From the NCBI GenBank assembly GCA_973895155.1, contig OZ316897.1:6748470-6812469 (forward strand): a stretch of DNA of 64,000 nucleotides, read 5' to 3'. This DNA is from Marsupella aquatica. Taxonomy: Eukaryota > Plantae > Marchantiophyta. The number at the start of each line of letters is the position of its first letter. The stretch's first letter is position 1. This document shows, piece after piece, positions 13,793-48,800 of this stretch. The translations under genes were made by a program, and so were the position numbers. Below the pieces are notes generated by a model. That model saw nothing but the letters and a program-made list of their open reading frames with translations, was not told where the DNA came from and did not search any database.

Positions 13793-15274
13793 TCAAGGGG
13801 GCATCCACCCAGGGCTGGAAGCAAGGCCGTTCCATGCGTAGTGATACCGTTTGTTGTCCAGATCGCAAACGGGCAACCAGGACCATGATCTTCTCGAGAT
13901 ACTGTACATGAGAACCTCTTGGCTGCCCCAATATCTGAGGAATAGGGTATCCCCGCTGCCCACACAGCGCCAGTGCCTCATGGTGGGCGGCCAGTGCTTC
14001 ATGGTGGGCTGGCTCCTGGTGGACGCCAGCAGTTCAAGCAATTCCTGCGGCATCCGGTCCACCTCGATCCATTGCACCCTCCCATCCGCGTGCTCCAGAA
14101 GTCGCCAAATGCGAATGCTCTCGTCCCTCGCGATGCCTGCCACAATGTACAGCCTATTGTACAGCGCCACCAAATTGGGGCACTCCACGCCTTCGATGGG
14201 CACCTCAATCTCTCTCCACACTTCCCTTCTCATCTCGAAGGCCACTATAGTATAGGGTTTTCTCGTAATCGAATATACCGAGCCGTCGCAGCAGATGTTA
14301 CATCTCGTCAGTCTGGATACCGTGGGGTGTGGGAAGACGCTCTCGCAACCCCTCCACGCATTCGTCGACGAGTCGTAGATTTCCGTCACCACAGCACTGT
14401 TATTGATATTCGTTCCAGTACCGCAGTAGTTCCCCACCGTGATGAGCTTGTATTCTTTCGTTGTGAAGTCCACATACATGCCTGCGACGCAGATGCCAGG
14501 CCACGAGCAATTCCTCGTGGTCCCGAGCAGCTTTCTGCAGTCGTTCGTGAGCGGATTCCATACGAAGTGCTCCGCCGTGGCGATCTTCCACTCATACTGG
14601 CGGCTGTACTTGGTCAGGCATACTAGCCCGCCCATGGTGGCTTCGGGGACGACCGTGTCATCGAAATTGACCATATTAATTGAGGGTAGCGTCGTAATGT
14701 GCCATTTCTTTAGCGAAGGGGCGTAGAAGGCTAGTCTATTCTGCGTCACTGTGCCACTCAAGAACCACGTCTCCTCTTGGGCCCTCGGCGTTTGGTAGAC
14801 TTCATCCAGAAAGGCTCGTGACGAGAGCAAACGACTCCAGCCCTTACACACGTTGCGGACCCTGATCAAAGATTGAAAAGGTAAGCGAGCGAGCACGATT
14901 TCCATCAGCTCCCCCGGGAAATTGCCCCACACTCTCGAATCCATGGCCTCCTCCTCCTCCACTTCCATCTCCCTCGTCGTCCCTGTGCAGCAGCAACTTC
15001 CTTCCAGATTCTGGAAATTGGTGCTCGACGACGTCTCCACCACTCGGGAGCAGCAGCCCCTACTGCTTCTCATCCCTGCATTTAAATCCTCTCGAATCCG
15101 CTGCTGCTGTCTCCCGAGTGCCACCATGTTTGTGGGGAGTTCGAATTCATCCACCAGCAACGGACGAGTGACTTTGAATCTTTTGCTGAAATCCTCGCCA
15201 AACAAACCTCTCCAGCCTGTCAAATCGAGAGTCATTCCCGTTCCCAACAGATTCTGCTCTCGAATTCCAACCAT
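13793..15274 (-). CDS. F-box/kelch-repeat (F-box associated) protein, intronless; true start may be a downstream ATG
   Basis: 493-aa ORF with F-box MDSRVWGNFPGELMEIVLARLPFQSLIRVRNVCKGWSRLL, followed by GGLVCL, VWNPLT, TEIYDSSTNAW, W.EVDRMP and YSISRRSWSWLP, typical of plant F-box/kelch proteins. Confidence 0.92.
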   Translation of the reverse strand: MVGIREQNLLGTGMTLDLTGWRGLFGEDFSKRFKVTRPLLVDEFELPTNMVALGRQQQRIREDLNAGMRSSRGCCSRVVETSSSTNFQNLEGSCCCTGTTREMEVEEEEAMDSRVWGNFPGELMEIVLARLPFQSLIRVRNVCKGWSRLLSSRAFLDEVYQTPRAQEETWFLSGTVTQNRLAFYAPSLKKWHITTLPSINMVNFDDTVVPEATMGGLVCLTKYSRQYEWKIATAEHFVWNPLTNDCRKLLGTTRNCSWPGICVAGMYVDFTTKEYKLITVGNYCGTGTNINNSAVVTEIYDSSTNAWRGCESVFPHPTVSRLTRCNICCDGSVYSITRKPYTIVAFEMRREVWREIEVPIEGVECPNLVALYNRLYIVAGIARDESIRIWRLLEHADGRVQWIEVDRMPQELLELLASTRSQPTMKHWPPTMRHWRCVGSGDTLFLRYWGSQEVLMYSISRRSWSWLPVCDLDNKRYHYAWNGLASSPGWMPP

Positions 15275-18929: not shown

Positions 18930-21102
18930 ACTCTTGGATGCTCCCTGCCTGGCAGTTTTTATTTGGTGATAAGAAATATTCTTCCAATTTTCAAAGTGTC
19001 CAATGTTTTTGGTATGCAAAAGCTAATAGACTTCTGAAATTTGAACTCAGGATTTAGCTTGCCACAAAGAAGAGCATTATGTTGTTGGGACTACTGTTGA
19101 GTAAACTTTGCACTTACAAGAATCTGCACACGATAGCATTAGGAAATGTGAAAACAGATTACTCATGCACTATAGAAAACAGGCAATATCAAGTAACACT
19201 AAATGGCCTGATCCCATGGACAACAATACATAAATTTGCTACGAACAAATTTGTTCATAGTGGTGAACCTGAATTTCTGTATTATACACAGGGAAAATCC
19301 AGATAAATATTCAGTGTTGTAATAATGTTCTTCTTCTCTTATCGTCGATCGGCCGTCCTGCCAGTCCACTAAATATTGATATAGCATGTTCATACTAATA
19401 GATGCTTGTTTTGTCTTATTGAATATTGATTTACCACATTGCCACAAAAGGCTTGCCGGCGAGGGCCATGGAGAGAGCGTGGGCACGAAAGAAATCGCTG
19501 CGGTAAAAGTTGCTGTTGGTGGCCTGCGGGTAAAAGGTAGAAGCCACGAGAAAGAACACAAACTGTAAGCTACATCTGGCGTTCCTTCCGATGACCTACG
19601 GACCTCTCTCTGTGTCCACCAAGGAGACGAAGCGAGGGAGAACTCACGTCCAACCTGACCTGACCAACCTGACCTGACCGGACCTGACCTGACCATGGAT
19701 GAGCTGACCCGACCAGGCCGCACGCACATCACATCGCCTCGTTTGTCTCGTTGCTTCATGGGCAGCAGCATCAAATCACCCCGTTGTCAATCCATCATCC
19801 ACTCACCCACTGCTTTTTTAGATTGGGCTTTTTTAGAGTGGGGCCAAGGAGTGGCGCGTCACTTAGGGTTGCTTTGCAAGAGGTTGGGGCAAGTGTATTT
19901 TTTTAAGGCTTTTCTTTTTTTCCCCTCAGTGGCCTCGAAGGACACCTGGGTGTGAAGTAGAAGATCCTAAAAGAATTATTTATATAATTTTCTTAGATTA
20001 ATTTCTGACCGTGAGATCTCAATTAATTTAAGGATAACCATGAGATTTTTGGCTAGGTGGAAACTGGCTAATGGAATAAATCTGTTTAATTGAGTTCAAT
20101 CTCTTGAATGAATGAAGAAAGGTGCTTCTCCTTGAATGAATAAGGCTACCTCTCTCCTGCCCAAGGTTGGCTTTTGGTGAGCAAACATATAAGGACCAGG
20201 CTGGGGAGTTTAAAAGAAGCGATCTCAAAAGACATTGAGCGGCATGGGGCAGAAACCCAGATCCATTTACCCAGGGCGAGATGGTATGAGATGGTATGAG
20301 ATTGAGACTGCATTAAAATGAGACAACATGGAGTGGGTTGAAGATGCAGACATGGAGACACTTCAAACTACAAAATAAAGGGCATGTCAAAACTACAGTG
20401 AATCGTGTCTAGGTGCGGCTCCCAGGAAGACACCACCAGCTAGCACTTATTTACGGAATGCGCTATGCTATAAGTGCACTGGATATCATTTATGCAATTC
20501 TCCATTTGTGCACGGTCTGCACTACCTAATAAAATTGCTTATGCACTTCCTCATTGTGTTGTAGGTAACACATGTCAGAGAGATCAAACCGCATTTATGC
20601 AAACTGCATTTTTTTGGTGCATTTCAAAAGAAATCTGTGATATTAATTAGGGGACTACATGGCCAGCCTGCATTTGACCATTGAATGCACTTATCCACGC
20701 TGCACTCAGGCATGGTTTACTATATTCTATTCTCAAATCTCCCACTGGAGAAAAAAAATTGTTGGATGATTTGATGATGGGAAACAAGTTTTGGAATTGG
20801 TTGGAACTGGCAGGGTTCCTCTTTATCCCAGTGGTTATTGAGCCCTTGCCTCTCTGCCTCTCTTTGTGACCTTGTTGGTCTAGTCTCCCATCCATGCCTC
20901 TTAGGCTGGTTCTCAGCTCATGCTAAGGAAACGGCTGTTCAAACAGAGGCATGTATGGGGTATGTATGGCCTGCAGCCTGTTTGTGACAGCATTCCCTTA
21001 GCTTTTACCAATGCTCCCCTGGTGAACCATTACGCATCTTGGGTTAGTATAGTCTAGTTAAATCAACCCATTACAAAATGGGGCTAAATTGATCATTATA
21101 CT

Positions 21103-21432
21103 TGTCATACCATTCTAGATGTTGTTGTAGTATATAGTGCTAGTTGAGTATGTACATTTTGTATGTGTGCTATTGGAGCCGATAGGGTTCCATTAGGTTT
21201 GTGTGAGAGGGTAGTTCTCTCTTGTGAGGCATTGAAAGGTTATCTTTCAATGTTGAGCCTTGGAGAGGGGAGCTTGTGTGGTGGCTATGGTGGCTGAGAG
21301 CTCTCTCTATGTAGGGTGGATTCCTTGAGTGCAAGGTGCGTTGGCTCAACATACATGTGTGATCGGATTGGTGCGGGATCGATGGGGTATTGTTGACCGG
21401 GATTGTTGTGCCGATTGATTGTGGAGATTACA
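21103..21432 (+). repeat. Terminal repeat A1 (328-330 bp)
   Basis: Colinear with 32236-32563, with about 10 substitutions counted by eye. Confidence 0.95.
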
Positions 21433-22765
21433 TTGAAAGGTCAGATTCAAAATTTGTTGTACGGACTGTGCGGACAGAAGTTCGATTGATTGAGTTGTCG
21501 ATGATTTGTGGTAGTTTGGATCGTGTGTTGTTATCGAACAAATCGTTGGTATCTCGATCTGTAGCGACGTTGAGTTGTTGTCCGATCAGCCTACTTCCCG
21601 ATCGATGTACAGATCTGTGATTGGTGACAGGTTTTGAGTTCGGACATTACCGTGGGCTGGCTATCGAAGGTAATCAGTTCGGAACGTTGAGGCTATCGTG
21701 TTGATCGTTAGCTTCTGTCAATCTACACTAAAGGTTGGATCACAATCTGTGAAAGGCAGGTTCACAAAGCTCTGATTGGGTCTGCTGTTTTTATGAAGGA
21801 AATTGCTCCTTCCAATTTCAGATGTTGCCAGATTTGATAGCAGGTTGTTGATCTACGAAACCCAGTTGGAGATGTTTGACTATGTTCTTGCATCGATCTG
21901 CTATTTTCAGGAAAAAACATTCACAAATGTTGTTGGATTCGTAGCGGCGCCAATGATGCAGGTGCGGAAGTGAACTGTCAACGATCGTGAATCGTTGGCA
22001 CTTTTGAAGCTGCGTTTTTTTTTGAAGGGATTAAGGGCCGATGTTGCCAAATTGTGTATGCTGTCGGATGGCATTTTTGTGAAGGAAATCGCTGCTTTCA
22101 AATGGAAAATGTTGTCATTTCTGAGCCCGACGACTTCTATTTTGTGCACACACACAAATGTGCGCGCATAAGGCGAATCGCGAGGTCACCCATCCCAGGA
22201 CTATTCCAAGTTGCAAGCGCTTAACTGGCAAGTTCTCATCACATCTTGTGTACACACAAGCTTTCACAACTTGTTGTTTAGATTCAAGCGTCATGGGGCT
22301 TTATACACTTCCCGATTTGTTTAGAGGCCTATTCTAGGCCAAATCAGAGGCTATTTAAGGGTTTTGATACTTCTGAGTCCATCTAAATTCACAGATTGAA
22401 CCAATTTTGCCTCGATTCTCATCTACAACATTGGAGTGCCATTGTGAAGCCTATTATGAAGGCTCTTCCTTGAACTTTATGAACATTGTCATATTGATTT
22501 GCATTTGCTTTTGTGTGGAGAGTTGAATGGTATCCATTCTTGTTTCTGGATCCTCTCCACACATGCTTCCTGTTTATGCGCCGTGTTAGTTTGGTGTGGG
22601 TGCTTGATTCCATAGGAATGATCCGGGTTTGCAACCAGACATTTTAGTTGTGCTGCGTATTTCTCTCCTGGTGATGTTGGAGTGATGCCCAACACACCAT
22701 GGTAAGTGCTTGTGGTGCTGACAGAGACAGATTGCCCTTAGGGTTAGCACATAGATTAAGTTAGT

Positions 22766-25700
22766 TTGGTCACCACAGATTCTTCTGGTGCTGCTGGGTT
22801 ACCCGATGGACGACGGACCGGTTTCACTCAGAGTGGGGCGCAGTTTCGGCCAGCGGCATTGGTAGCAGTCAGCAGTGCAGCTTTAGACAGTGATTCCGAC
22901 GAGGACTCGGTGACTAGTTCTCCTCATCATCAGGTGGTTGCACCTTTGTTGTGGGATATGGACGAGATGTACGGGGCTACAAAGGGCCCACGATGATACT
23001 CTGGTGCAGTCGGCATGATTGATCTGGATGACTTCATCCAGGAGTTTGATACGTGGTGCGATATGTAGACATTGCGTAACGCCACGTTGTTTATCCCTTT
23101 CATGGCATGGAAGGGATTATTTCAGCATTTGGAGGGGCCACCCATGGATGACTACCATGAGTTTTGGAAGGCTCATTTGGTTGAGATTGAGGCATGGAGG
23201 CAGCATTGGTCGCCTAATTACGTGTCCATCACCTATGGCACTAGTGCGGCTGCCCAACCCATTGCCACAACTGCTGCTTCTTCTAGCAGCACTAGCCAGA
23301 GTGGCACACCATCCACCAGTAGCACTCCAACAGCATCCACCGCTACTCCTGCCGGTGTGATTGTGACAGGGACTGGAGTTGCACCAGCATTTAACCCTGT
23401 GGTGGAATTCTTTGAGGTACTGAAGCAGAACTATCAGGGTGTGAGAACTGATAAGTTGAAGGGTCTCCAGGAGTTTTAGCACAAGGCTAGAGAGAGCCTA
23501 CGTGAGGCATACACTCATATGCGCAGATTGATCACTATCACCAAGGGAGTGACAGAGGCTCAGGCCGTCCAGTTTTGGTATGCAATTCTAGACAGAGAAT
23601 TGCGACGCAGAGTGAGAGATGTCACTCTGCTTAGGGATGCAAATCCCACATTAGCAGTTGTTTTTACATTTTCTGAGCGCATTGAGCTCAATATGGTGAA
23701 TGAGAAGGTGGTGACTTCCGGATTTTCCAAGGAAGCACCGAAGGCTGCATCTACATACACACCACAGCCTACTGCACCACAGCCTACTGCATGGAAGAGC
23801 CAGAGGGAGAAGCCTACTGCACGAGAGTCTACCAGCCAGAGACCTGTGCCCTCTTATGCTGGACAGCAGTCAGGATGTTGGACCTGTGGTGGGGATCATG
23901 CACAGAGATATTGCCCAGATCATAGAGGATCAGGGGAAGCATCAGCGCCTGATCAGCGACAGTGTGATCATTGTGGAGCTCCTAGACACACCAAGGATAG
24001 GTGTTTCTCACTCCATCCTGAGTTACGGAGAGGAGGATCCCGTACACATGATCAGGGAAGAGGAGGAGAGTGGGGGACCTCCCACCACGTGCTCGTCCAA
24101 ACTCGCTTCTCAGCCTTGAAACAAGTTGAACCTTGCACTAACACGGAATGTTGGGGCAAGTTCTCTCCGACTATACTCCTTGTCGTTAGCAATCCCTCCC
24201 ATACAAAGCCGCACTTGCCCTCATCACCATAACCATCGCTCAACGGTCTTTACTATCTGCACAAGCAACCAACCAATCGGTAAGAACCCGTCTTGATCTC
24301 GGAACTCCCAAGACCATTATCTTGCATCAAGCTCAACAGTCGTTAGTAAGTAGGTCAGCAGATAGAGCCTCCCAGGCCCACATGGCCTTGTCATAAGCTG
24401 AAATTAAGGTTGGCATCACTGTTCGTCCGGAATAGTCTATCTACCGGATGTCACCCAAGCTTCCCCACTTTCTACCCGTCAATGGCTGACCGCCCTGCCT
24501 CCAGGACATGTCCATGGCCCAAATAGCGTAGCTTGTACTAAAGCTTGTCCCAACACGTCAGGACCAGAATGACCCCCACCTCTAGCAACCAACTCCTAAC
24601 TTGCCCCACTGACGGTCTAGGGACCGAGCACTCTTGGAACCCAACCTCCATACCTACTTGGCCTTGCCTCCCCAATGCAAGTTCCCTTGGGAGACTGAAC
24701 GCGGTTTAGCTGCTGTTCGGTAGGATTTGGCAAGCGGGCGAGTTAACACCTGCAAACCCCGAGAACCCAAGGTTCCCCCCCAACCCAGTTGAGCTCAAGA
24801 GGGCGTAGCCCTCCTCGAGAGCTTTCCAACGCACCAAGAAGTCCTCCAACGGACTTCCCGTTGGAAAGATATCGCTTTTTCCGTTTGGTGGTTTCCCTTA
24901 GTCTTTTGGCTCGCCCTTAGCCCCCCAGGGAGACACCACTCCCCTCATATATGCTTTTGGAGACCTGGCACCCCCGGACCAGCTTTGGTCCCTAAACATT
25001 TGGCCCCCAACCCGGATCCTATCGCGCATAATGGGGGCGCCATCAACTGGCAATGCCCATAACTTTCTCGTTAGGCATCCGCAAGCGGAGTGCCTTAGCC
25101 CGTTGCGAGCAGGCCGACCCAGTGCTCATGCCTAGGCCCTCAGGTGTCATCGCCGCTCGGGGACCCCGATCGGCCCAACCCGGATCGGACCCTAACTCGC
25201 GCCCCAAGCGTTCGTTGCCCATGGCGTCAACTCCATTGGCCTTGGGCCCAAGAGGAGTTCACTCTCAAGCCCTCAGAACTCAAAGTCCTTCCAGAGGCCC
25301 GGACAGTTGTCCTTGAGCCCGGCCCGTTTCCCCTTGACCCGACCAGCTCTCAGCTTGTCCAAGTCCTTAGTGTGCGTCACCAGCTCGGCTCCTTGCCTTC
25401 GCTAGTGCCAATTCTCGTTGCCCACAAGTCTCCCCATGCTAAGTCCTCCCCGAATGGCCTATCCGGGCCTGGACCATAAGGGAGCTCGGCTCCTTGCCTT
25501 CGCTAGTGCCAATTCTCGTTGCCCACAAGTCTCCCCATGCTAAGTCCTCCCCGGATGGCCTATCCGGGCCAGGACCATAAGGGAGCTCGACGTCGGAGTC
25601 AGTGACGCCGGAGCTAAGTGTTAAGGTAGTCGAGTTCTACGACTCCCAAACTACAAGTATGCGGTTTGAGTCGGCCATAACTTTTGGCCCCTGGGTCCGT

Positions 25701-26498
25701 TGGTCGAGAAATATGCGGCCCCATGATCGGGCTCATGTGGAGCTTCTTGGGCCCCTATGGTGATCCATCAGAAAAATAGTTCATTTTTCCATGATCGGCA
25801 ACGGGCCCAAACTACAAGTATGCGGCTTGAGTCGGCCATAACTTTTGGCCCCTGGGTCCGTTGGCCGAGAAATATGCGGCCCCATGATCGAGCTCATCTG
25901 AGGCTTCTTGGACCCCTATGGTGATCCATCGGAAAAATAGTTCATTTTTCCTTGATCGGCAACGGGCCCAATAGAGTTAAATTGGAGTGCGCTTTTCTCA
26001 AATCTTGTCCTTGCTCTTACTAGCCTCCTCTTTGTTAGTCGCATCCCTAATGGCCATGATGGTAGAAAATCTAAGAGGGGCTCAATGCTGGAGTTAGGCA
26101 ATATCGGAACAATCATGAGTAGGTGGAAGTTGTATTTGCGACTAGGAGGAGGTAGAGGTGGTGGACGTGGTCGTGGCATGCCACATGCAAGGAGACAGGG
26201 AGGTGACGCTGCCCCTGCTGTAACCATAGATCCAAAGGATGCTACGATTGCTCAATTGGAGCAACAACTAGCTGTCATGGCTAGTTCCCAGGTGAGACCT
26301 ACTTTTGGTGATGGGGCATCTACATCCTATGGACCTTCCACATCCCATGGTCCTTCCACATCTTATGGAGCTGATGGAGACCTTGCCACCATGGGATTCA
26401 TGTGTGGCACTGCACATATTGATGCATCAGCAGCTTTGACACGTGGGGCAGCCAAAGCTCTTGAGCCCCGAGAAGCAGTAGTGGAGCTAGATCCATAG
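22766..26498 (+). pseudogene. gag with two CCHC zinc knuckles and RGG tail; interrupted by insertion 24069-26143
   Basis: CWTCGGDHAQRYC and CDHCGAPRHTKDRC knuckles. The GRGG reading frame resumes after the insert. It is homologous to the gag at 45844-47220 and has several in-frame stops. Confidence 0.85.
24069..26143 (+). mobile_element. Non-coding solo-LTR-like insertion with AGT...ACT termini (copy 1)
   Basis: Begins AGTGGGGGACCTC and ends TTGCGACT. AGGAG flanks both sides (24064-24068, 26144-26148). It is homologous to 51129-52619 in inverted orientation. Internal tandem duplications of about 101 bp (25382-25587) and about 162 bp (25644-25970). Confidence 0.8.
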
Positions 26499-26570
26499 AG
26501 GAGGGATGCACGTCGGCAGACAAAGCTTCCTCAGTCTTTTACATTGTCAGAGACAGTTTAGATTGCCTCT

Positions 26571-27350
26571 ATGAATCCGGTTCGGACAAACCCTGGCGTG
26601 GGTAAGTTGGCAGAATCAGGTACTAGTGATGCAGTAGGGATAACAGGTACCCTGCTAGGGGCGGCTACTGCCATCGTACGCACCCCATTATTTTCAGCGA
26701 TAAACATGCTGAACTTGGGAGTTGGTCATGCAGAAGTGTTCAGATTGGCAGCTACACTCTATGAGGACACTCTAGTGGTTGCTTCCCATGCAGAAGCAGC
26801 TTGTAGTGTTGAAGCAGTGAAGACCATGCCACCTACTGCTACTAGTGAGACATGGCATGCAGCAACAGCGAGGTTGGTGGATTTACCAGCACGCCCTGCA
26901 TTTGAGAGGACTAGGTCTAAACCTAATGTTGTGTCATTGGATAATTGGAGTGGTATCTTTCGATTAGTTGGGCCATCTAAAACAGTATACCAGCCAGAGA
27001 GAGTGTTACTGGATACTGGTGCTCAGCCCTTGATGTTGGGGAAGTCTGCCATACGTGGATTGGGATTGCGATTGCGTCCAGAGGATTTGGAGGATTGTCC
27101 CTTTCCCATTCAGACTTCATTGAGGGGACCTACACCTGCACAACATATCACCAGGAGACCACTTGATTTGAGGATTCAGGAAGGTCATGCGACAAATAGC
27201 TCACAAATATAGGCACGAGCTATTGACTAAAGCAGAGTCATATGATGTGTTGGTGGGATGTACAGTGCTCTACCCCGTGGGATTTATTCTTGATTTTTGG
27301 GATGAATCAGTGTCATATAGACCTGATTGGTAGTCAGGAGATGCTTGATT
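26571..27350 (+). pseudogene. Retropepsin aspartic protease region
   Basis: RVLLDTGAQP catalytic motif, then a downstream YDVLVG-like motif (about 27241-27258) after a stop and frameshift. Confidence 0.8.
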
Positions 27351-27720
27351 TAGCAGGTTGCCAGTGAGATTTAGTGGACCTATGGGAGGCCCTAAATCCA
27401 CACTCTTGTCTTTGGCAGCATTCAGTGGTGTAATTACTGGACCTTATGATTTGATTGAGGGTAATGCGCATGCAGCACATGTTCCACCATTGGAAGAGTC
27501 ACATGAGGAACAGATCATGCGGGGATTACCTGTTGGCAGTGTGGCGCCACCAATGTGGGGCACTAGACAGGCCTTGCCACAAGCAGCAACACGATTGATA
27601 CATGATGTATGGCGTCATGCTTTTACACCACAGTCAGGAGCAGAGCGGTCTCTTGCAGATGGACCGGTGACTCTTTCACCATTGGATACCACTTTTGTTG
27701 CTTGGCAGTATCCACCGGAG

Positions 27721-28600
27721 GGTATTTACTTGTTGGATCTATTTGGTGGGATTAGCACTGGATTAGCTGCTGTTCTTCGGGCATGAATTCCTATGCGTCG
27801 CTATTTGTATGTGGAGACAAATGAGATAGCACGGAGGGTCTCAATATTGCGGCATGTGGCTATGTTAGTGGATAGATATCCACAGTTGCTGCCAGTGGAT
27901 GCTGTTTGTGGTTATCAACATGCACTACCTGCTGATATTTCATTGTTGGGGGCGGATCATTTGCATCGTGTTGGCCCCATTGATTTGGTGATTGCTGGTT
28001 GGTCATGTCAGGGCCAATCTAGAGCTGGCATTGGGCATGGACTTCATGATCCATGCTTTGCATTGTTTTGGGAGATGTTACGGATGCTACATCATCTCCA
28101 GCTACATCAGACACAGTCTCCAACATACATTTTGGAGAATGTGCCATTGTTAGATGATGATCGTAGTCGGGTTGTTGCTAGTGTTCACCAGGTGAGGGGG
28201 TGGACTAATTTGATCCCATGTGAGGTGCTGAAGTGCGCATTTGACAGCATTCCACGCTCACCAGCCTTAGTGGTGGATGATATTTTGGATCCAGGGCGTC
28301 TTGCATAGGGTGTGACCCAACCTGATAGACCTCCATTGGCAGTGGTCAATGCAGTTGGGCGCCCACGTTGTGCATTACCCACTCTTGTAAGCCACTCTGC
28401 TTCATATGCATTCAAAGCAGGTGGCCCTGGACTTGTGTGGGACACAGCTCTCCAGCAGTTAGTAGAACCTACTGTTGATGAGAGGGACCATGCTATGGGG
28501 TTTTTGACAGGCACCATTGCAGTTGCCTCGGTATCAGAGAGTTCATGCCGCCAGGTCCTTGGTCAAGCCATGGATTTGAATTGTTTGACTTGGATTGTCA
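27721..28600 (+). pseudogene. C5 cytosine DNA methyltransferase domain (DNMT3-like) within pol
   Basis: All in one frame: motif I LLDLFGGISTG, II YVETNE, IV GPIDLVIAGWSCQG, V LFWEMLR, VI YILENV, WTNL, IX EPTVDERDHAMGF, X RQVLGQAMDL. Two in-frame stops are present. Confidence 0.9.
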
Positions 28601-28846
28601 GCTTGGGAGTAGCTGAACAGTTGCGGATGCGCTCTGCTGGTGTTACTGATCGTCCATTAGTGAGCTTGCGGTCCACTAAGACAGTGATGACCACAGCTGG
28701 GGGCGAGCAGGTCTACCGTCCATGGACCTATGGCAGGATTGGCCAAGGCTAGACAGATTGTTGAGCAGGAAGAGACTACTCAATCTACTACTAAATAGCA
28801 ATCATCGGCTATCTCTTCTACCCTACAAAAGGATATTAGGGATCTG

Positions 28847-30290
28847 GTGGAGAGTTGGGAGCCACAGATTGGTCCTAAGTTGACAGGGGATGAGAGATGT
28901 CGCATGCATCGATTCCTGAAGAGTTACTGGAATTGTTTTGCATTCAACATGAAGGATTTGGGGACATTGAAAGGCCCTGGTATTCAGATTGAATTGGCTA
29001 GTGATGCGCCAATCTTTCGTAGACCATACGGTTATAGTGACATGGAGAGAGCTCTGATTCAAAGCAGAAATCAAGATTTGTTGGAGGCTAGATTGGTGGA
29101 GATTTCATATGGGGAGTATGCATCTGCCTCAGTGATGCCAGCCAAGAAAGATGTACATGGCAATTACACAAATAGGCGCATGTGTGGTGATTACAGACCT
29201 ATTAATCGCCAGACAAAATTTGATCGATATGCCATGTCCACACCTGAGGAGATCTTTGATGCTGTGGGGCATGCAAAGGTTTTCAATTCATTGGATCTGA
29301 GGGCAGGGTACCATCAGCTTCCAATTAGACATGCTGACAGGTCCAAGACAACATTATGGGGGATTGATTCTTATGGCAAAGATCATTTATATCAGTGATT
29401 GTTCTTACCATTTGGGTTGAAGAATGCACAAGCTGAGTTCCAGAGAGTCATGGATCGAATCCTTGCAGGTTTGGATTTTGTCAGATGTTATATTGATGAT
29501 ATTTTGGTCTATTCTTCTACTGTGGAAGAACATCAGCAGCACTTGCAGATTGTGTTGGAGATATTGAGAGCACATGGGTTGAAGCTCCATCCTGGCAAGT
29601 GTAAGTTCTTCCAAGACCAGATTGAGTATTTGGGCCACACTATATACCCAGGGATTGGGTGTACAACAGAGTAAAGTGGAGGCCATTACACAGATTCCTC
29701 GTCCTACTGATGTGAGCAGAGTTCGTGCATTCTTGGGATTGGCGAGCTACTATAGGAGGTATGTTAAAGGATTTAGCCAGCTTGCTAAACCTTTAACCAT
29801 ACTCACTAAGTTGGATCAAGAATGGACTTGGGGTGATGACCAGGAGCATGCCTTTCAGGAGTTGAAGCAAAGGTTGGCATCATCCCCTATTTTGAGAAGA
29901 CCCATTTCAGGCAGACCATTTTAGCTAAACACTGATTGGAGTGGAGTAGGACTTGGAGCAGTGCTGACTCAGAAAGATGATGAAGGGCATGAGTTTGTTG
30001 TGGCATATGCCAGTAGATCAAACAATTTAGCAGAGGCTAAGTATAGCTCTTATGAGGGAGAGTGTTTGGCAGCAATGTGGGTTGTGGCACACTTTTGCTG
30101 TTACTTGTTTGGTAATCCTTTCACTTTGATCAGTGATCATCAGCCTCTCAAGTGGTTAATGGAGTTTGACAAGCTTATTGGGAAGCTTGCAAGATGGGCA
30201 TTGTTGTGGCAGGAGTATGATTTCCAGGTTGTACATAGACCTAGAAAGGTGAACTTGGATGCAGATGGGTTGAGCCGCAACCCATGTACC
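28847..30290 (+). pseudogene. Ty3/Gypsy reverse transcriptase and RNase H
   Basis: RMCGDYRPIN, LDLRAGYHQL, LPFGLKNA, YIDDIL, RAFLGLASYYRRYV, TDWSGVGLGAVLTQ, SSYEGECLA, SDHQPLKWL, ADGLSR. Confidence 0.97.
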
Positions 30291-30380
30291 AGTCAACAGG
30301 ATGAGACTGGAGCCAGATGGCATGATGAGTCAGATAAGGAGATGGTGCCAGGATGACATGCATCTGCCTTTCTTTGTTGG

Positions 30381-31781
30381 GTGCCAGCATACAGTGGATC
30401 TGTGGACTCTACCTCATTGGATGGAGTGGATGACGAGTCTTCAGATGTGGATGTTGGTGAGGTAACTTCTGGACATCAAGATATTCACAATGATGTGAGA
30501 GTGTTGGAATATATGCGCAGTGGTTCTATTGTTGGCAGTGTTAATGCCAACGAACGTGACGGGGTTCTACAGAGAGCCAAGAGATTTCGATGGGAGGGAA
30601 ACCATCTTCTGAGAGTACTGCATGATGGTAGGGTGTTGGTGGTACCAAAACCATCACAACGAGTACATTTGGTGCAACATGCGCACGAGGAGTTGGATCA
30701 CTTTGGTGTGAAGCGCACTTACAGCTTGTTGCAGACACAATATTGGTGGCATGGTATGCACACTCATGTCCAGTAGTTGATAGCTAAGTGCGTGGTATAT
30801 GATAGAGTGAGAGCATCATTTAATGTTCCCACTCCCCAGTTGCACCCATTGCCGATCATGGGTTTGGGATATCGTTGGAGATTGGATTTTGCTGGTCCAT
30901 TACCTCTTACCGAACGTCATAATCGGTATGTTTCGGTCATGGTGGAGCACTTCTCCAAGTGGATTGAGCTAGTGGCGTTGCTAGATAAAGCCAATGGAGG
31001 AGTTGCTGCTACATTTTTGGATCATGTACTCAGTCATTTTGGAGCACCAGCTGAGGTGTTGACTGATCAGGGAACTGAGTTCCATGGAGAGTTTGAGAAT
31101 TTGTGTGAGCAAGCTCTGATTGATCATCGTACTACCTCTCATGATCATCCTAAGGCAGATGGATTATCTGAGAGAGTTGTGCAAACTGTGAAGAGAGGAT
31201 TGCGTAAGTATGGCTTGCAGGTTGGTCATCTGGGAGATTGGGATCTCCAGCTACCTTGGTTAGCTATGGGCTACCGTTTCAATCGGCAAGCATCACTTGC
31301 ATCCTTCTCACCTTACTTTTTGCTCTATGGTAGAGAGCCAGATTTGTCAGCAGCTATTCGTCATGATGCTGCACCAGTTGTGAACTTGGATGATCTTGAT
31401 GTTTGGGTCAAGGTGTGTTCAGAGAGAGCACGGGTATTTCAGAGAGTGATGCCCATGGCTTTTGACAACCTTGCCATTGCCCAACATCGTGATACTTTGA
31501 GGCATGCCACTATTTGTGGAGGAGGTTATCGTGCAAGCATTCGACGATTTCATCCTGATGATTATGTTTATTTGCAACAGACAACACCCACGACACTTGA
31601 TGTGACCGTTGGCCGAACAATCTTACGTGTGTGTGAAGTGTTGCCTTCTGGCGTCCTGATGTTGGAGGGACACGATGGTATGGTTTGGAAGGATCATGTG
31701 CACAACTGTGCACCATGTCACCTTCCCAACATTGATGGTACAGTAGATCCAAGCTTGGCACATGTTCGTGCTGGCTTGAAA
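30381..31781 (+). pseudogene. DDE integrase (H2C2 zinc-binding + rve core)
   Basis: HEELDHFG...YWW, LDFAGPLP, EHFSKWIE, LTDQGTEF, HPKADGLSERVVQTVK, SPYFLLYGRE. Confidence 0.95.
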
Positions 31782-31922
31782 TGTATGTTGTGTGGATCTA
31801 CTCAGGGAGCAACTACTATGTTGATTTGTGATAAGTGTTCTAGAGGATGGCACATGTCATGTTTGACACCACCATTGTAGGTGATTCCTAGTGGATCATG
31901 GTTGTGTCCTCAGTGTTGGTGA
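31782..31922 (+). pseudogene. PHD finger (C4HC3) at integrase C-terminus
   Basis: CMLC-x11-CDKC-x4-HMSC-LTPPL*VIPSGSWL-CPQC, with one internal TAG. Confidence 0.92.
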
Positions 31923-32097
31923 AGCTGACTAGTTATCATTTGTGTTCTCTTGGCCGATATGGATTGCAGGAAGGTGATCGATGGGGCTCACTTGCACCCG
32001 GCCTCCTGATCTTCACACTTAAAAAGGTGTATATCAGCCTTGTAGAACTCATGGCTAGCTAGAGTTAGGGGACCTTACTCCCAGCTAGGGGGGTGAT

Positions 32098-32233
32098 TGT
32101 GGGTTTTGGACATGTGTGGACATGAGTTCCACTTGTATTCCATTCTCTTGTGTTTGTGATGTTGCATTGTGGATATGTTTGGATGCGTGTGACAAGCGAT
32201 GTATGTTGTGTAGCGATGTGTACGCGCACGATA
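32098..32233 (+). repeat. Terminal repeat B1 (136 bp), preceded by polypurine-tract-like aggggggtgat
   Basis: Colinear with 32565-32700, with about 6 substitutions. Confidence 0.95.
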
Positions 32234-32235
32234 GC

Positions 32236-32563
32236 TGTCACACCATTCTAGATGTTGTTGTAGTATATAGTGCTAGTTGAGTATGTACGTTTTGTATGTG
32301 TGCTATTGGAGCCGATAGGGTTCCATTAGGTTTGTGTGAGAGGGTAGTTCTCTTTTGTGAGACATTGAAAGGTTATCTTTCAATGTTGAACCTTGGAGAG
32401 GGGAGCTTGTGTGGTGGCTATGGTGGCTGAGAGCTCTCTCTATATAGCGTGGATTCCTTGAGTGCAAGGTGCGTTGGCTCAACATACATGTGTGATCGGA
32501 TCGGTGCGGGATCGATGGGGTATTGTTGACCGGGATCGTTGTGCCGATTGATTGGGGAGATTA
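32236..32563 (+). repeat. Terminal repeat A2
   Basis: Copy of 21103-21430. Confidence 0.95.
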
Positions 32564-32564
32564 T

Positions 32565-32700
32565 TGTGGGTTTTGGACATGTGTGGACATGAGTTCCACT
32601 TGTATTCCATTCTCTTGTGTTTGTGATGCTGCATTGTGGATATGTTTGGATACGTGTGACAAACGAGGTATGTTGTGTAGCGATGTGTATGCGCACGACA
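32565..32700 (+). repeat. Terminal repeat B2 (element 3' end)
   Basis: Copy of 32098-32233, ending GACA and followed by TACT. Confidence 0.95.
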
Positions 32701-33364
32701 TACTATTTTGGGGGGCAGGTTAGTAATTTTGATCAGTTTGGGAGATTGGATAGTCAAAATGGTTATTAGATATGTGCCGCCACTATGCCTCCATGTTGGG
32801 CAAGTTGACATATGAGCTGTGGATAAGTGCAAGGCCTTGGGAAACCTGCAGTTGAGTGGTTTGCATAATGTGTCACTTCAAAACTAGGGTAATTGCACCT
32901 TTCCATTCCTACTGCAAAGTTTCACCCTGTTATTCAAAACACGCACCACAATGCTCAAGAGCAAATTGAAGAGAGGATTAAAACCCTTAGGACATATAGA
33001 TTATTTTTCATGCCATTTCTTCTAACTGGTAATGTAATTTTTTACTCTACATATAGCCCTGAAGGTATTAACTATTGCAAGATTCCATGTCCTCTCTTTT
33101 ACCCGTTAGTGCAAGTGCTGACCAGTATGTGTCAACTGCAGTTGTCTGTAAGTGCACCGCAACACCTATGGACTGGTAGTGAGCATGGAACTTATCATAA
33201 CTGCAAAGTACCCAAAAAAATGAATGTACGTAAGCCCTCCAACTCTCCCTTTGCAATCATCCATGCTTTGCACTTATTTATGTTTGACTTGACCCCATAA
33301 TGAGGTGTCCTTCTCCATATCTACATGTGTTATTGTCGGGGTATCAATTTGACCAGGCCGCAGC

Positions 33365-34884: not shown

Positions 34885-36100
34885 TCATTGCCACTTTTGA
34901 TGTAAAACTGGGGCCTCTTGCAAGGCCTTGATTTTCAAACGGTATCTTTCTCCCCTGGGCACAGCCTGTGAAGACCCAAAACCCGAATGCCCACCTCTCC
35001 TGGGCATGTCATAGTAGATGAACCCCACTAACAAGTTGCACGAATTGCACCGAAGCTGGGTTCTCCTACGATGAATTCCCCAGGAATCCAACGAATCAAA
35101 GAAAGGGAAGCAAGAGCGCCACTTCTTTTCCCTTTGCTTCCGAAATTTAGACATATCAACTTCCATAAATGAGAGGGTACCTCTGTTACCTGCTTCAAAA
35201 TATGTATCTGGAGGGTATAGGTCATTTGAGGTTATATTCAAGCTTACCCCGCATTTCCCACAACTGCAAGGCCCACACCACACAGTTTGCACTCCTGTCA
35301 GAAACTCTATTCAGCAGCAAGCTCACCGACATTTTGAAAATATGTACCACACAACACCGAAGAGTAACATAATCATCCACGTTTCTCCAAACTAGCCTGA
35401 CTGTTCGAGCATTGTTCAGGCCCACTGTTGCCTTCCCCACCTGTTCCCTCACCTCGTAACTTGCCACCACCCTAGAGTCACAGTCTAGAGGCTTCACCCT
35501 TAGACCATAGGTTCCAGAGTGTAGCTTTCGATCGTGAATTATTACTTATATGCAACCTCTGGCAAAAAGTGGACTCTCACAGACAAGCATGTCCTATACT
35601 CAATCTCAAGTCGCAATATTGTCCACATACTGCGCAGATTTCAAACAACACATTGCACCCGGATAAAATTCTATCCATGAGCGTCATTCACATATTGCAA
35701 TTGTACCTTAATGTATCTACAGCACTCGAGGGAAGAACTAACTTGGGAATATTGAGACAAGCACATTCGTGACCAGAAATGTCTGCCATAAGATACCTTA
35801 TTCAATATAATCAGGTTTAGCACTCACTTATCTACAGTAACTATCCACAGATGTTCATACTTCAGTAACTGCTTGGACATGGTCCTTCACGAGGTGAAAT
35901 TAGGAACATGACGAATATTTGCCACGCAGCTCTGGATGAAGCATCAGATAACTTTTACACAAAGCCTTAAGCATTTCAAGGACTGTGCATAGTTACACGG
36001 TACTACGCAAGAAAGTCATATGTTTGTACACCTCACAACATGGTGGGCGGGAGGCTCCAGGATCTGAGTGAACATACCAATACATAGCGTCTGCCGTCAT
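34885..36100 (-). CDS. Uncharacterised zinc-binding plant protein (At2g17705/At4g08330-like; Yippee/Mis18-like CxxC pairs); exons 36100-36078 and 35263-34885
   Basis: Splicing a GT-AG intron gives MTADAMYCCGKCGVSLNI...LYPPDTYFEAGNRGTLSF...WGIHRRRTQLRCNSCNLLVGFIY...SQAVPRGERYRLKIKAL. Confidence 0.85.
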
Positions 36101-43736: not shown

Positions 43737-45843
43737 TTAATTTCTGTTAGAAAAAGTGTTATACACTTGAAAGCAATTCTCACGAATAAATCTTACCAAG
43801 TTATCAAAGAGTAGTTGCTCCGCTGTGGTCTTCTCCTTTGCCTTGTGCAGCAACTGTTCAAGATGATAGTTCTTCTTCTTCTCTTCCTCTAATGACTTCT
43901 CTAGCTGCTCAATCTTGACCTTGTTCTCATCTCCTTTCATCAGGTCCTCCACTTTCTTCACAAAGTCAGCAGGAGCTACACCAGTCACCTGGGAGAGCCT
44001 TGAGAGCACTGGTTCCATGATTCCCATCTTGGTCTTGATGGCCGAAAGATCCTTGAATAAACAAGAAAAATGGTGTAAGGTAGAGTGTGAAAGACCGGCT
44101 GAAGAGGTAGTAGCGCCACTCATCGGGTAGGAAATTGGGTCAGAAACCGGTTCAGAAGCCGGATCAGAAGCCGGTTCAGCTTTGTCAAGCTTCCTCTTCC
44201 TGGTTGGCCCTACAAAGTCGATCTCTTTCGGCTCTGGGTCATCTTCAGACTCTGGTAAGCTCTGAATTTCTAGATCCAAGACTCCATATTTCACATAGCT
44301 ACTCTTGGTGCCAAATGCACTCTTCTCATGTTTGAATAAGGTTTGGTCATGAGAGTATAGATGTACCAAGTAACAGGAGGGTGCTCTGTTGGACAGGGCG
44401 GAGACCTGCTTCTCTAGAATGCTTGAGAAGATAGTGGCCCATGATACCTCTCTGGTTTTGAAGAAGGAAGCAATGATAGTACTTCCTACTTTAAGAATCA
44501 CCCTCCTTGGTTTCTCTGGATAGATGAGGAGGACTAGGAATGCCATCACGTTCCTGAGGTCCTTGTGAGTACACTGATTGATGGTCCATCCTTCTTTGGC
44601 ATCCATCTTGCCACCAAAGTATTCCACTATGAGATTCTCTCCTCTGGGGCAGAAGCCACTCCCTTTCACTGGTAGCTGAAAAGCTTCTCCAACGAATGCC
44701 TTGGTCCAAGCTTCTGGTCGAGCTCGTGCAGTCTTCTGAAATTCTGTGGGAGGAACTCCTGCCAGCACTTCCCTCACCATGTCTTCACTCAGAAATCCCC
44801 AAGTAAGATCCATCAAGGAGGCACAGCCCATTAGTGTAAGATCTTTTCAGAGCTGTTCCTTCTCAGTTGCATCAGTAGAAATGAGGGGTCTCAAGGGCTT
44901 TATGGTGATCTGAGTCTCCTTCCTCTTTGAACGTCGTACTTCTGGCTTTACTGGAGTCCCACTCTGAGTCTTGGAAGAAGGACTGCTCTTGGCACTCTTC
45001 ATACTGCCTGGTAGTTGGAGTAGCAAACAGATTTGAACCGGTGAGAGCAGAAGGTAGGAGCTAGAAGTGAATATAGCCTCTATAATTACTCCATCACGTA
45101 TATCAGCCAACCTTCTCGATCTCAGCACACTTTCAGCGAAAATGAACGTCCAGCAAGCGAGATATAGCAGAAACAGTTTGCCACCGGTTTAGTTCCGGTT
45201 CAGAAACCGGCTCAAGCCTCGGAAGTAGACGACTATCAAAACAGGGGGCCTTAGCGCCAATCTCCACATCCCCAGCCTTCCCTCCAAGCGTAGGAGTAGG
45301 CTGCCACCTCACACGAGTCTGTCAAGGCTCTCTTATACCTTTCTCTCACAGAAACTAGAATGGTCCTATAATCCGGACCCAAGATCCTCAACCGGAAGAG
45401 AAGAGCCTCCTTTCACTACTGCTTCAACAAGCCTATTCACTCGGGAGCTCAAAACTTACTCTGTTTAACTTTGAGAGGTGTGAGAAGAGCAAAACCGGTT
45501 CGGCCTTAAGAGGGATTCCGGCTCACTGTCAGGAGTCCAATGCTTATGGGTTTTCCCCAGGACGAAGAGCGTAGTCTCGGCTTCAAGAACCTGGTGTTAG
45601 ATTTTCTTGATAGCGTCCGGAGACGATTTTACGGCTTCCGGTTTGTGGTCCGGTTTCCTTCTCTTTACCAAGAAATACTTTCTTCCGGTTGAGCCTCTTT
45701 TCCTTCTCTTAATCTCTTGAATGGTTGTTAGACTTTCAATAATGGTTTGCTTAGCATTTAAGGTTCTTCTTTCCCGCTTCAAAGGCAAAAAAATTTAGTT
45801 TTTCCACTTTCTTTATTCCTTTCTTCTTAACCATGTTATCACA
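43737..45843 (-). mobile_element. Truncated LTR-retrotransposon fragment with accessory ORF (43737-44831, coiled-coil C-terminus), inserted into the gag of the element at right
   Basis: The - strand begins TGTGATAAC exactly where the gag RGG region breaks (45843/45844). The 364-aa ORF (R.RPEAWT, FL..IYPEKP, V.WA.I, YL.HLY) resembles bryophyte retrotransposon accessory proteins. The left end was not found. Confidence 0.55.
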
Positions 45844-48800
45844 GGGAGGGGCAGCCACTATAGGCGCTCCAACTGCTGGTGGACCTCTACCACCCCTACC
45901 ACCTCTACCACCTCCACCACCTTGGCCTCTCTGAGGTGCTCCACCACGACCTCGACCACCCATCCTCAACTCTGGGTATAGGTCAAAACAACGGTCTCGA
46001 GGATGACCTGCTCGACCACAATGATCACACTGCACATGGGCTGACTGAGATCCATCCTCTAAACTCCATCCCCCACTCTCCTAGGGACAAACCCTCCAGA
46101 CATGATCACCTCCACATGTCCAACACATTGATCCTTGCTGCTGGGCAGCATATGAAGGCAATGGTCTCTGCACACTCATCCCTCTGGAACCTGATTGAGG
46201 TCGTGCCGAACCTCCATGACTCCCACTACTACCACCACCACCACTACTACAAGACTATAAAATGGCTGGCTGAACACGAGAAGTAGTGGCTGTATCCCTA
46301 CTGAATGCAGATGTCACTACCCTCTCCTCCATCATGTTAAGCTCAATCTTCTCAGCCAAAACAAACACACGGGACAACGTGGGTGGATCATCACTCATCA
46401 GAGTAGCATCACATACCCTCCTCCGCAACTCTCTGTCCAAAATCCCATACCAGAACTGGACAGCCTGTGCCTCAGTCACACCTTGGGTAACTGAAATCAA
46501 ACGCCGCATACAAGTGTATGCCTCACGAAGACTCTCACCAGTCTTTCTCTCAAACTCCTGAAGACTCCTCAACTTCTCTCTCTTCACCCCCCGGTAGTTC
46601 TTCTTCAACCTCTTGAAGAACTCTGTAACTAGGTTGAACGAAGGTGGAGTGCTAGTGCCCCCACTAGTGCCTCCACTGGTGCCTCCACTAGCCGCTCCAC
46701 TAGTGCCTCCACTAGTACCAACACCACCCTGAGTGATAGACACATAGGCTGGAGACCAATGTTGTCTCCATGCCTCAATCTCAATAGCATGATCATTCCG
46801 GAACTCATGATAATCATCCATGGGAGGCCCCTCCAAGTGCTGAAACGACCCCTTCCATGCCAAGAAAGGTGTAAATAATATGGCGTTACGCAACATCTGC
46901 ATATCACACCATGTATCAAACTCCTGAATGAAGTCCTCCAACTCAATGGTGCCCATTGCCCCTAAGTAACGTCGTGGGCCCTTCATGGCCCCGTACATCC
47001 CGTCCATATCCCAAATCAATGGGGCTGCTATACTGGACAATACAACTGAAGACTTGATGTCTGGGACACCCTCGTCCTCGTCCTCATCAACTAACGGTAG
47101 TGGAAAAGGTAGCCGATACCTCAATCCACTCCGTGTAAAACCACCAATGTCAGCACCAAGGTCCCCAACAGGACCACCAAACTGCTCCGTGATGACAAGC
47201 CGCAACAGCACCACCACCAAGTAACGTCGATGTCGCCGTATTACTCTAGCCCTAATAGCTACATGGGTGTGGGCAACCTAACCTGTCATCACCACAAGCA
47301 ACCTCCCATGGTCTATTGGTCATTACTCCAGTCTCACCATGAGAGAAACATAGGTAGTCTGACTGGTCATCACTCCAACCTCACTACCGGTAGCACACTG
47401 GAGTAAAACTACTCCGGAAATCAGTGTCAGCCCTAACAATGGGCGCGCAAGCAAGAAGCAGCAATGGAGGGGATCCAAACACAGGAAGTCCAACGACAAC
47501 CCTCCAATCGCAAATGAAATACAAAACAGAAATCAAGGTAACACAATCCACCAACCATGGCGCCCCCTGAATCCACAAAACAAACCACACAATCCTAACG
47601 CAATGTAGCTACTCCGCTAGTAGTCTATGACGTGCTCCTCGCACTCCCAGCATTTGATAATGTCACCTGCATGGAAACGCTATCCACCACCATCCGCTAG
47701 GAATCCCAACACGGGTCCTAACGCAACCTAAAACGATGCATATATGGGGGAAAACGTCCAAATATTACACCAATTTCTCTAAGGCAGTCTATACACTAGC
47801 AGAATTCAGAACCTGCCAGTTAAGCGTCTTGCAGGCAGAATAGTGCAAAGATGGGTGACCAGTTATGCAACACAATAATCACAGAACTACTCACAAATCT
47901 GCAAAACTATCTCACGCCCAAGCAAGCAAGCTTGCTTGCTTGCTCCCTTGCTCCTTTTCTCCGCCTCTCACGCCCACTCGCCCTGAGCTACCACGAGTTG
48001 CCAACGAATCTGTCTGGACCAGAATTCAATTGGCCACCATAGCTATCTCTCCACAAGAAATCAACTACAACTGAGGTCTGTACTTCAAGCTAAAAATCGG
48101 ACAACATTTCGGCCTATACATTTCCAAAGTTGCACAGCACTTTCGCTCACGATCTATGAGCCACAACTAGGATAGCGCTTCTGCGCCATTGATCACACAA
48201 CACAGATCTGCACTTTGTCATCCAGATCTACTACCAATGCATTGAAATCCGGCAGCGCTTCCGCATAGATTCATCAATACAGAAATCTGCAACGGTCCCT
48301 CTCTAAACAACAATTCGCTCCACACACCAGAGCTAACTAGTTCTACACGATTGAATTGATGTTGCAAATCAGACAAGGATCAACATCAGAAACCTCTCAC
48401 CCAATCTGGATGACTTCCAACAGAGCTTCCGCACTCAAGCTTTCCAAATCTGAAAAACCGTCGAACACAAACCAGATTCTTCATTCTTTGATTACTTCCA
48501 ACTCGCTCGACCAAACCAGGCGATCTTTAGTGCGTTGGAAAGCTCTCAGCAACGCGCTTCTTCCCCACCCATACACGCACCAGATCCACGAACCACAATG
48601 TATCCACGGATGATGCTATCAAACAGCCTACCAGATCCTACTGATCTCTGAGCGAAGTTACAATCGATCACTACGAGTTCTTTGAGTGAAATCCATGAAA
48701 GACATACTGTCATAAAACACATAAGAACACACACAGTCAAGCCAAACCCACTCCACAATGGAGAATCTAGGTCAAAGCTAACGGGACACCATAGCAAGGA

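Follow-up and report, generated by a model that had tools for sequence, protein, structure and literature searches.

The window analyzed here, a 64,000-nucleotide stretch of the genome of the liverwort Marsupella aquatica, contains at positions 21103–32700 a decayed 11.6-kb Ty3/Gypsy element with a DNMT3-like cytosine methyltransferase domain. This element very likely belongs to a Gypsy family that encodes such a domain, and the methyltransferase is a trait of the family and not a peculiarity of one copy. The kind of element is already known from an alga; the land-plant branch seen here has a conserved stop codon, likely read through, and conserved split ends. Taken as a whole, our reading is that the family encodes its methyltransferase in the Gag-protease frame, ahead of a leaky stop, such that the enzyme would reach the abundance of Gag and would methylate the element's own cDNA, an account whose probability we put at roughly 0.7.

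Plants silence transposons mainly by cytosine methylation, and why a transposon should keep a methyltransferase of its own is therefore a lasting puzzle. The puzzle was left open in 2018, when no methylation by the algal enzyme was seen in yeast, as described in the part of that report used here (PMC5890265). In the family described below, the conserved stop would predict the amount of enzyme made, the split ends hint that this integrase-type element is copied in an unusual manner, and Gag-protease-DNMT proteins of Marchantia polymorpha bring the question into a genetic model.

Architecture of the Window Element

The features of the element and its flank are as follows, with positions given relative to the window.

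21099–21102: 5′ target-site duplication TACT, with the 3′ copy at 32701–32704
21103–21432, plus strand: repeat A1, LTR-like, TG...CA, 97% identical to A2 (10 of 328 positions differ)
22958–24063, plus strand: first part of gag, with 3 stops, 56% identity to the Marchantia Mp4g09160 protein (P0085)
24064–26144: 2.08-kb insert from a different repeat family, nested within gag (joint 24063>26144 in 4/4 runs)
26145–27300, plus strand: end of gag and aspartic protease (DTG at 27012), with a frame change near 27222
27721–28620, plus strand: DNMT3-like C5 cytosine methyltransferase domain, broken
28796–28804, plus strand: conserved TAG stop with CAATCA next to it (stop-CARYYA), a probable read-through site between ORF1 and ORF2
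28874–29644, plus strand: reverse transcriptase (RT), YIDD at 29489 (PF00078, E 1.6e-29)
29670–30290, plus strand: RNase H (PF17917, E 1.1e-30)
30600–31450, plus strand: integrase, H2C2 zinc finger and rve core (PF17921, E 2.5e-12; PF00665, E 8.1e-11)
31779–31922, plus strand: C-terminal PHD finger and terminal stop (PF00628, E 1.9e-10)
32087–32093, plus strand: polypurine tract AGGGGGG, at a position common to 8 relatives and the distant locus L085
32094–32233, plus strand: repeat B1, 94% identical to B2
32227–32240, plus strand: B1/A2 junction (end of B, 2-bp spacer, TGTCA)
32236–32563, plus strand: repeat A2, pairing with A1
32564–32700, plus strand: repeat B2, ending ...CGACA just before the target duplication
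34885–35310, minus strand: flanking host gene of the At4g08330 family (PF24046)

The earlier note on this DNA had described a Ty3/Gypsy element, bounded by a target-site duplication, with a methyltransferase inside pol between the protease and the RT. The assignment to Ty3/Gypsy is borne out by the RT, RNase H and rve integrase domains found downstream of the methyltransferase, with the protease-RT-RNase H-integrase order and a DDE integrase present in the Pfam scan; a tyrosine recombinase gave no match in the sense frames scanned, and the integrase is of the rve type. The position between protease and RT also holds, given that the protease lies upstream (a weak match, Pfam E 0.0096, below the cut-off) and the RT downstream. 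The location inside pol, however, does not, because the conserved stop at 28796 separates the domain from the RT and places it outside a single pol ORF, in the Gag-protease ORF. As for the boundaries, 4-bp TACT copies do flank 21103–32700, but the ends follow an A...B-A-B layout and are not a normal LTR pair.

The window copy is defunct: 15 premature stops interrupt it, its reading frame shifts near 27222, 28713 and 29650, motif IV of its methyltransferase reads Ser-Cys, motif VIII is lost, and its gag is split by the nested insertion, the empty site of which is spanned by contigs in 4/4 read runs. The summed contig depth of the element, which does not equal copy number, is hundreds of times that of the unique flank contig. 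The terminal repeats diverge by only 3–4% (K2P 0.031 and 0.038). Coding decay on this scale seems excessive for such a divergence; the parent of the window copy may already have been defective and mobilized in trans. At a distance of 2.2 kb from the element lies the flanking PF24046 gene. Its best cluster, in which the named members come from Calypogeia fissa, shows 89% identity, compared with 70% for Marchantia paleacea and 52% for an angiosperm, and by this one gene the host is likely a leafy liverwort.

We note a number of other features in the window. The nested repeat at 24064–26144 is flanked by a purine-rich duplication, the length of which is uncertain (5–8 bp), and has internal 101- and 161-bp tandem duplications, with neither TG...CA ends nor clear inverted ends; its middle is covered more deeply by reads than the host element is, and a second copy (51129–52493, minus strand), 80% similar, lies directly beside a Copia RT/RNase H fragment. 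A truncated member of a related subfamily lies at 45967–47860 (minus strand) and comprises the 5′ leader and gag only (64% identity to Marchantia P0085); no DNMT was found for it in the window. Adjoining the breakpoint of this second gag is a 369-codon open frame (43737–44846, minus strand) with no Pfam match and a CpG observed/expected ratio of 0.27, like that of transposons. CACTA Tnp2 transposase fragments are found at 1012–2166 and 3066–3533 (both minus strand), with a weak SET-domain match nearby (E 5e-4, below the cut-off); a probable host gene, in the form of a long F-box-encoding open frame, at 13793–15274 (minus strand); and, at 56674–57557 (minus strand) and 54649–54854, Copia protease and integrase fragments and a 26-bp tandem array of at least 6 copies.

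Identity of the Methyltransferase Domain

The earlier note had proposed a DNMT3-like, non-permuted C5 methyltransferase and a PF00145 profile search as the check on it. With stops read as X, the peptide of 27229–28800 scores 26.7 bits against PF00145 (cut-off 22, E 4.8e-6), and its best PDB match is DNMT3A (E 1.7e-6). Motifs I (27733–27753), II (27802–27816), IV (27973–28008), V (28039–28050), VI (ENV, 28129–28143), WTNL (28195–28212), IX (28480–28503) and X (28549–28575) follow each other from 27733 to 28575 in a single frame, in unpermuted order and intron-free. The proposal is thus upheld, with DNMT3A/B as the nearest solved relatives. Its description of the motifs as lying in one intron-free frame is correct as to frame and introns, but two in-frame stops interrupt the domain, at 27784 and 28306, and motif IV reads Ser-Cys instead of Pro-Cys in this copy. 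Compared with relatives, 23 codons including motif VIII are gone at ~28198.

Relatives give a sharper picture of the domain. With a profile built from 72 of them, DNMT3A (6.9e-26) comes out ahead of DRM-type enzymes (1.4e-13 to 2e-10), HhaI (5e-9) and DNMT2 (1e-5), and the profile aligns to DNMT3A across motifs I, IV–VIII and IX–X. The predicted structure of one natural relative, P0002 (pLDDT 93.8), superimposes on DNMT3A/B with Z 28.7 and an rmsd of 2.6 over 274 aligned residues (HhaI, Z 23.8), and Foldseek likewise returns a DNMT3 fold match (E 3e-18); a search of the ESM Atlas gave only PF00145 clusters. Judged on this model, the family domain is predicted to have the DNMT3 fold, and our term "DNMT3-like" rests on these scores and on the modeled fold. 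A C-terminal DUF3444 marks the host DNMT3 of non-flowering plants, according to the part of PMC6453930 drawn on here, and DUF3444 gave no match in a Pfam scan of the window peptide or its relatives.

Distribution and Conservation of the Family

Protein searches returned 82 + 51 matches, with Marchantia, Calypogeia, Riccia, Sphagnum, Closterium and Mesostigma as named hosts, and a profile of the family matched 474 clusters at E 1e-30 or better. A domain order like that of the window element is seen in relatives from Marchantia, Calypogeia, Sphagnum and Closterium, so that the land-plant lineage suggested by the earlier note does exist, with the same gene order in three land-plant genera (Marchantia, Calypogeia and Sphagnum). 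The order gag-protease-DNMT-RT-RNase H-integrase-PHD recurs wherever the contig is long enough (80 metagenome loci and L085). The sole main-group locus in the DNMT tree, L020, clusters with named Sphagnum proteins, and contig depth over the DNMT is about that over the RT and integrase in 4/4 runs.

Pro-Cys is present in 56/73 and ENV in 67/73 proteins of this order, and C140, E183, N184, R223 and R225 (P0002 numbering) are kept in at least 90% of 72 sequences; motif counts in the metagenome loci are biased, because these loci were retrieved by motif IV and VIII patterns. Relative to the main group, dN/dS (Nei-Gojobori, with dS near saturation) for the window element is ~0.16 for the DNMT, 0.09 for RT and 0.10 for integrase, and the DNMT values, again with dS near saturation, are 0.16–0.17 for the window element and L027 and 0.24 for L085. 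Within the main group, which consists mostly of decayed close copies, the ratios are 0.61, 0.42 and 0.48 for DNMT, RT and integrase, respectively. These ratios indicate purifying selection on the DNMT of the family, at Ka/Ks < 0.2 for the window element and L027, with dS near saturation. The outcomes that the earlier note had named as damaging to its claim are thus absent: PF00145 is matched, sister copies carry the domain, and the domain is under purifying selection.

Full-length Gag-protease-DNMT proteins of Marchantia polymorpha, such as Mp4g09160, MpVg00370, MpVg00540, Mp5g06330 and Mp5g06860, fall into one 90% cluster of 18 members; among the 15 members listed, at least 5 are Marchantia polymorpha proteins of 1278–1281 aa. 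Of 146 long relatives, 20 are Gag-protease-DNMT proteins without RT. The Marchantia polymorpha proteins are filed as hypothetical host genes, and ORFs of the family could distort bryophyte gene counts and DNMT inventories.

Outside eukaryotes, viral contigs gave 4 distant matches (25–39% identity), none with retroelement domains, and a single contig (L085) matched among the prokaryote genomes. Family members occur in records filed as bacterial bins (Synechococcales, Obscuribacterales), namely L085 (1–9285) and the protein P0011; both records are most likely eukaryotic contamination.

That a retrocopied host DNMT3, or a nested piece of DNA, landed only once, in a single Gypsy copy, is extremely unlikely. 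A DNMT-less copy does exist, since 27499 is directly followed by 28728 in one contig from one run, and the window element already carries another nested insert; against a one-off event, the position of the DNMT is the same in relatives from mosses, liverworts and algae, the DNMT and RT trees split congruently, and neither the domain nor its relatives have the DUF3444 of host DNMT3. On the shared position and the congruent trees, we reject this explanation in favor of a family-wide domain.

A Sister Clade with a Different Gene Order

A large sister clade has the DNMT between RNase H and integrase instead; RNase H precedes the DNMT in 67 of the 146 long relatives. Examples are P0123–P0129, P0139 and P0204, with one member named from Scenedesmus, a chlorophyte. 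Motif IV reads Glu-Cys in 40/89 proteins of this other order, and in P0142 and P0309 there is no stop, with the DNMT in one ORF with RT and RNase H. The two gene orders fall on either side of one branch both in the RT+RNase H tree and in the DNMT tree (SH-aLRT 100 and 98), the former a quick search with 57 rows and the latter comprising 82 of 165 domains after thinning, both unrooted and built without outside references. A single old capture followed by a later move of the domain would fit these unrooted trees.

A bolder history is conceivable, in which a green-plant Gypsy element captured DNMT3 before the chlorophyte/streptophyte split, later moved it from its place between RNase H and integrase to the Gag-protease frame before a leaky stop, lives on in mosses and liverworts, uses the enzyme to premethylate its cDNA, rebuilds its ends from a palindrome, and has gone unrecognized in land plants. 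We regard this full sequence of events as doubtful. If true, a retroviral-type integrase would act on DIRS-like ends, and every particle would contain as many copies of methyltransferase as of Gag. The usual LTR finders would then overlook the family and, with the full-length first ORFs of Marchantia filed as host genes, a land plant may hold many unrecognized mobile de novo methyltransferases.

The Stop Codon between the Methyltransferase and the Reverse Transcriptase

An in-frame stop is present in the DNMT-RT linker in 48/48 informative loci (of 85), with CAA as the next codon in 46/48; after removal of near-duplicates, a stop followed by CAA is found in 36/38 loci, and L060 does not fit this pattern. 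The contexts are TAG-CAATCA in the window (28796) and L085, TAG-CAACCA in L027 and TAG-CAACTA in L076, all of which fit stop-CARYYA, described as the plant read-through consensus in the part of PMC5397192 used here. In the largest subfamily the stop precedes CAACCC, which differs from CARYYA at one base, and an in-frame ATG comes next; among the de-duplicated loci, 33/38 are one base off and only 3/38 match in full. Of the 16 internal stops in the window element, 28796 is the only one with a CARYYA context (chance rate ~0.0014), and in L085 the linker stop is the sole break from gag to PHD, leaving two in-frame ORFs. An RNA hairpin after the stop was sought in four copies (z –0.63, –2.34, –1.53 and –1.32), and no conserved strong structure emerged.

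Taking these observations together, the linker stop is probably a read-through site. If it is read through, the DNMT would be made at Gag levels, ~10 times those of the RT, because the stop lies between Gag-protease-DNMT and RT-RNase H-integrase-PHD. For comparison, the context of tobacco mosaic virus gives 6–10% read-through in stable Arabidopsis lines, with UAA tolerated, as reported in the section of PMC2754532 considered here. The window UAG-CAA-UCA fits the same consensus as the viral site (PMC2754532, PMC5397192), whereas the 5′ CAA codon of the virus is absent here and the main subfamily is one base off.

Some plant elements splice out the stop region, as in Ogre. With this parallel in mind, the stop might merely terminate ORF1, with RT-integrase reached by splicing, re-initiation or a separate transcript, which we consider unlikely. 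The main subfamily would lend itself to such routes, having an ATG two codons past the stop and a T-rich run before TAG that could act as a splice acceptor, but the window element, L027 and L085 lack any Met from the stop up to the conserved W.P..GP.LTG block, and no T-rich run precedes their stop. Moreover, the bases CAA-Y-Y are kept although the second residue varies (Ser, Pro, Leu), and 10/38 loci have TAA, which provides no acceptor, with the caveat that these may reflect decay. Read-through remains our preferred reading of the conserved stop.

Element Ends and Target-Site Duplication

The layout in the window is A1, coding region, polypurine tract, B1, A2 and B2, with TACT on either side. 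The TG...CA ends, target duplication and polypurine tract of a Gypsy element are all present, and yet there are no paired like LTRs directly bounded by the duplication, with A at the 5′ end and B-A-B at the 3′ end. Among 7 loci spanning both ends, the A...B-A-B arrangement is found in 4 (L034, L052, L057 and L077), in addition to the window, and no terminal repeats were seen in 3 (L021, L023 and L029); the B pair alone was detected in L012, L066 and L074, and not in L017, L020 and L053, the 3′ ends being compared in assembled loci only. All 5 complete A...B-A-B cases have a 4-bp duplication (TACT, TCTC, CATA, AAGG and AATC). With regard to a TGG-type primer site, the only type considered, A1 is followed by TTGAAAGG, and relatives have CTCAAAGA, not TGG.

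At the B/A junction, relatives have a CA-GC-TG or CA-AT-TG palindrome. The junction CACGACA-(GC or AT)-TGTCA is exact in 6/85 loci, among them L085, a distant relative; three further loci and the window have a near-exact version. The B1/A2 junction looks like both element ends fused through a 2-bp spacer, and from this resemblance we infer that it could serve as the template for both ends before insertion by the DDE integrase.

Possible Function of the Methyltransferase

The mechanism that we propose would run as follows. Most ribosomes would stop at UAG-CAA-YYA and yield Gag-protease-DNMT, with a minority continuing into RT-RNase H-integrase-PHD; the protease would release the DNMT within the particle, where it would methylate the reverse-transcribed DNA, probably at CG, such that the new copy arrives premarked. 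The internal B/A palindrome would template both TG...CA ends, the DDE integrase would insert them, and the PHD finger may read host histone marks during integration.

The step concerning the enzyme itself, namely that the DNMT acts catalytically on the element's own cDNA after packaging with Gag, has in our estimate about an even chance of being correct. Fusion to Gag-protease predicts packaging into the particle, which argues against the DNMT being kept for another job, such as the methylation of rival elements or of already integrated copies in the host nucleus, RNA modification, or a DNA-binding role within the integration complex; alternatives of this kind are listed by de Mendoza 2018, in the part of the paper used here (PMC5890265). 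The catalytic Cys, ENx and the arginines of motif VIII are furthermore near-invariant over 72 diverse sequences, and the related SymbioDIRS Dnmt3 methylates CG de novo (PMC5890265, as described in the same portion). Nevertheless, a Glu precedes the catalytic Cys in 10/73 same-order and 40/89 other-order proteins, the Klebsormidium domain showed no methylation in yeast, a result its authors regard as inconclusive (PMC5890265), and there is no element-specific loss of CpG. On balance, another job is rather unlikely.

We also considered CpG depletion as a sign of self-methylation and rejected it. The CpG observed/expected ratio is 0.33 in the window element and 0.27 and 0.44 in the two Copia fragments of the window; as the loss in the element is no stronger than in these controls, there is no self-methylation footprint.

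Comparison with Known Systems

Host DNMT3 proteins (PpDNMT3a/b, PMC6453930, as far as described in the part used) and animal DNMT3A/B share with the family an unpermuted catalytic domain and its predicted fold. In contrast to them, the domain of the element has no DUF3444, PWWP or ADD match, is ~25% identical to DNMT3A, and, in the window, sits embedded in a retroelement.

Among Gypsy lineages, Phygy and Selgy (REXdb, PMC6317226) likewise come from non-seed plants. According to the portion of that paper considered here, Phygy prefers NCGN targets, whereas NCGN is found in 0/5 duplications of the present family, and neither a methyltransferase nor a PHD is mentioned in this portion. The REXdb search required LTR pairs flanked by target-site duplications (PMC6317226), and the family is possibly absent from REXdb because it lacks such pairs.

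A "Gypsy-DNMT3" of streptophytes is named in bioRxiv 10.64898/2026.05.21.726589, with no land plant named in the part used, and PMC12344493 (2025) mentions such elements in "streptophytes", without hosts in its accessible text; bryophyte sequences may sit in the "streptophyte" trees of both. We found no account of a bryophyte Gypsy-DNMT family in the openly licensed literature, and nothing on it in the sections of PMC11982613, PMC6673714 and PMC12885004 covered here.

With the DIRS/Ngaro elements, the family shares split direct repeats, but its integrase is of the rve type and not a tyrosine recombinase. SymbioDIRS-Dnmt3 of Symbiodinium, for which de novo CG methylation has been demonstrated in yeast, similarly combines a Dnmt3 domain with A-coding-B-A-B repeats in a retrotransposon; it uses a tyrosine recombinase, whereas the window element has a DDE integrase and the family 4-bp duplications (PMC5890265, in the portion used).

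The closest known system is KnitGypsy-Dnmt3 from Klebsormidium nitens, which confirms the precedent for DNMT capture that the earlier note had named. In the part of PMC5890265 available to us, it is described as a Dnmt3 in Pol, with DIRS-like repeats, Gypsy domains and Ka/Ks < 0.2, and as showing no methylation in yeast, which the authors call inconclusive; according to their peer-review file, the DNMT is in one ORF with RT and RNase H. No match named Klebsormidium is present among the protein matches of the family, and the two are compared by description. In both, a Gypsy element carries an unpermuted Dnmt3-like domain that is free of introns and under purifying selection, and both combine A-coding-B-A-B or DIRS-like repeats with Gypsy domains (Fig. 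4c legend). A PHD finger, target duplication and junction palindrome do not appear in the KnitGypsy-Dnmt3 text considered here. Unlike KnitGypsy-Dnmt3, the present element has a land-plant host, and a conserved stop cuts its DNMT off from the RT, though in frame. Likened by text description, the window element is thus a land-plant variant of the Gypsy-DNMT3 kind.
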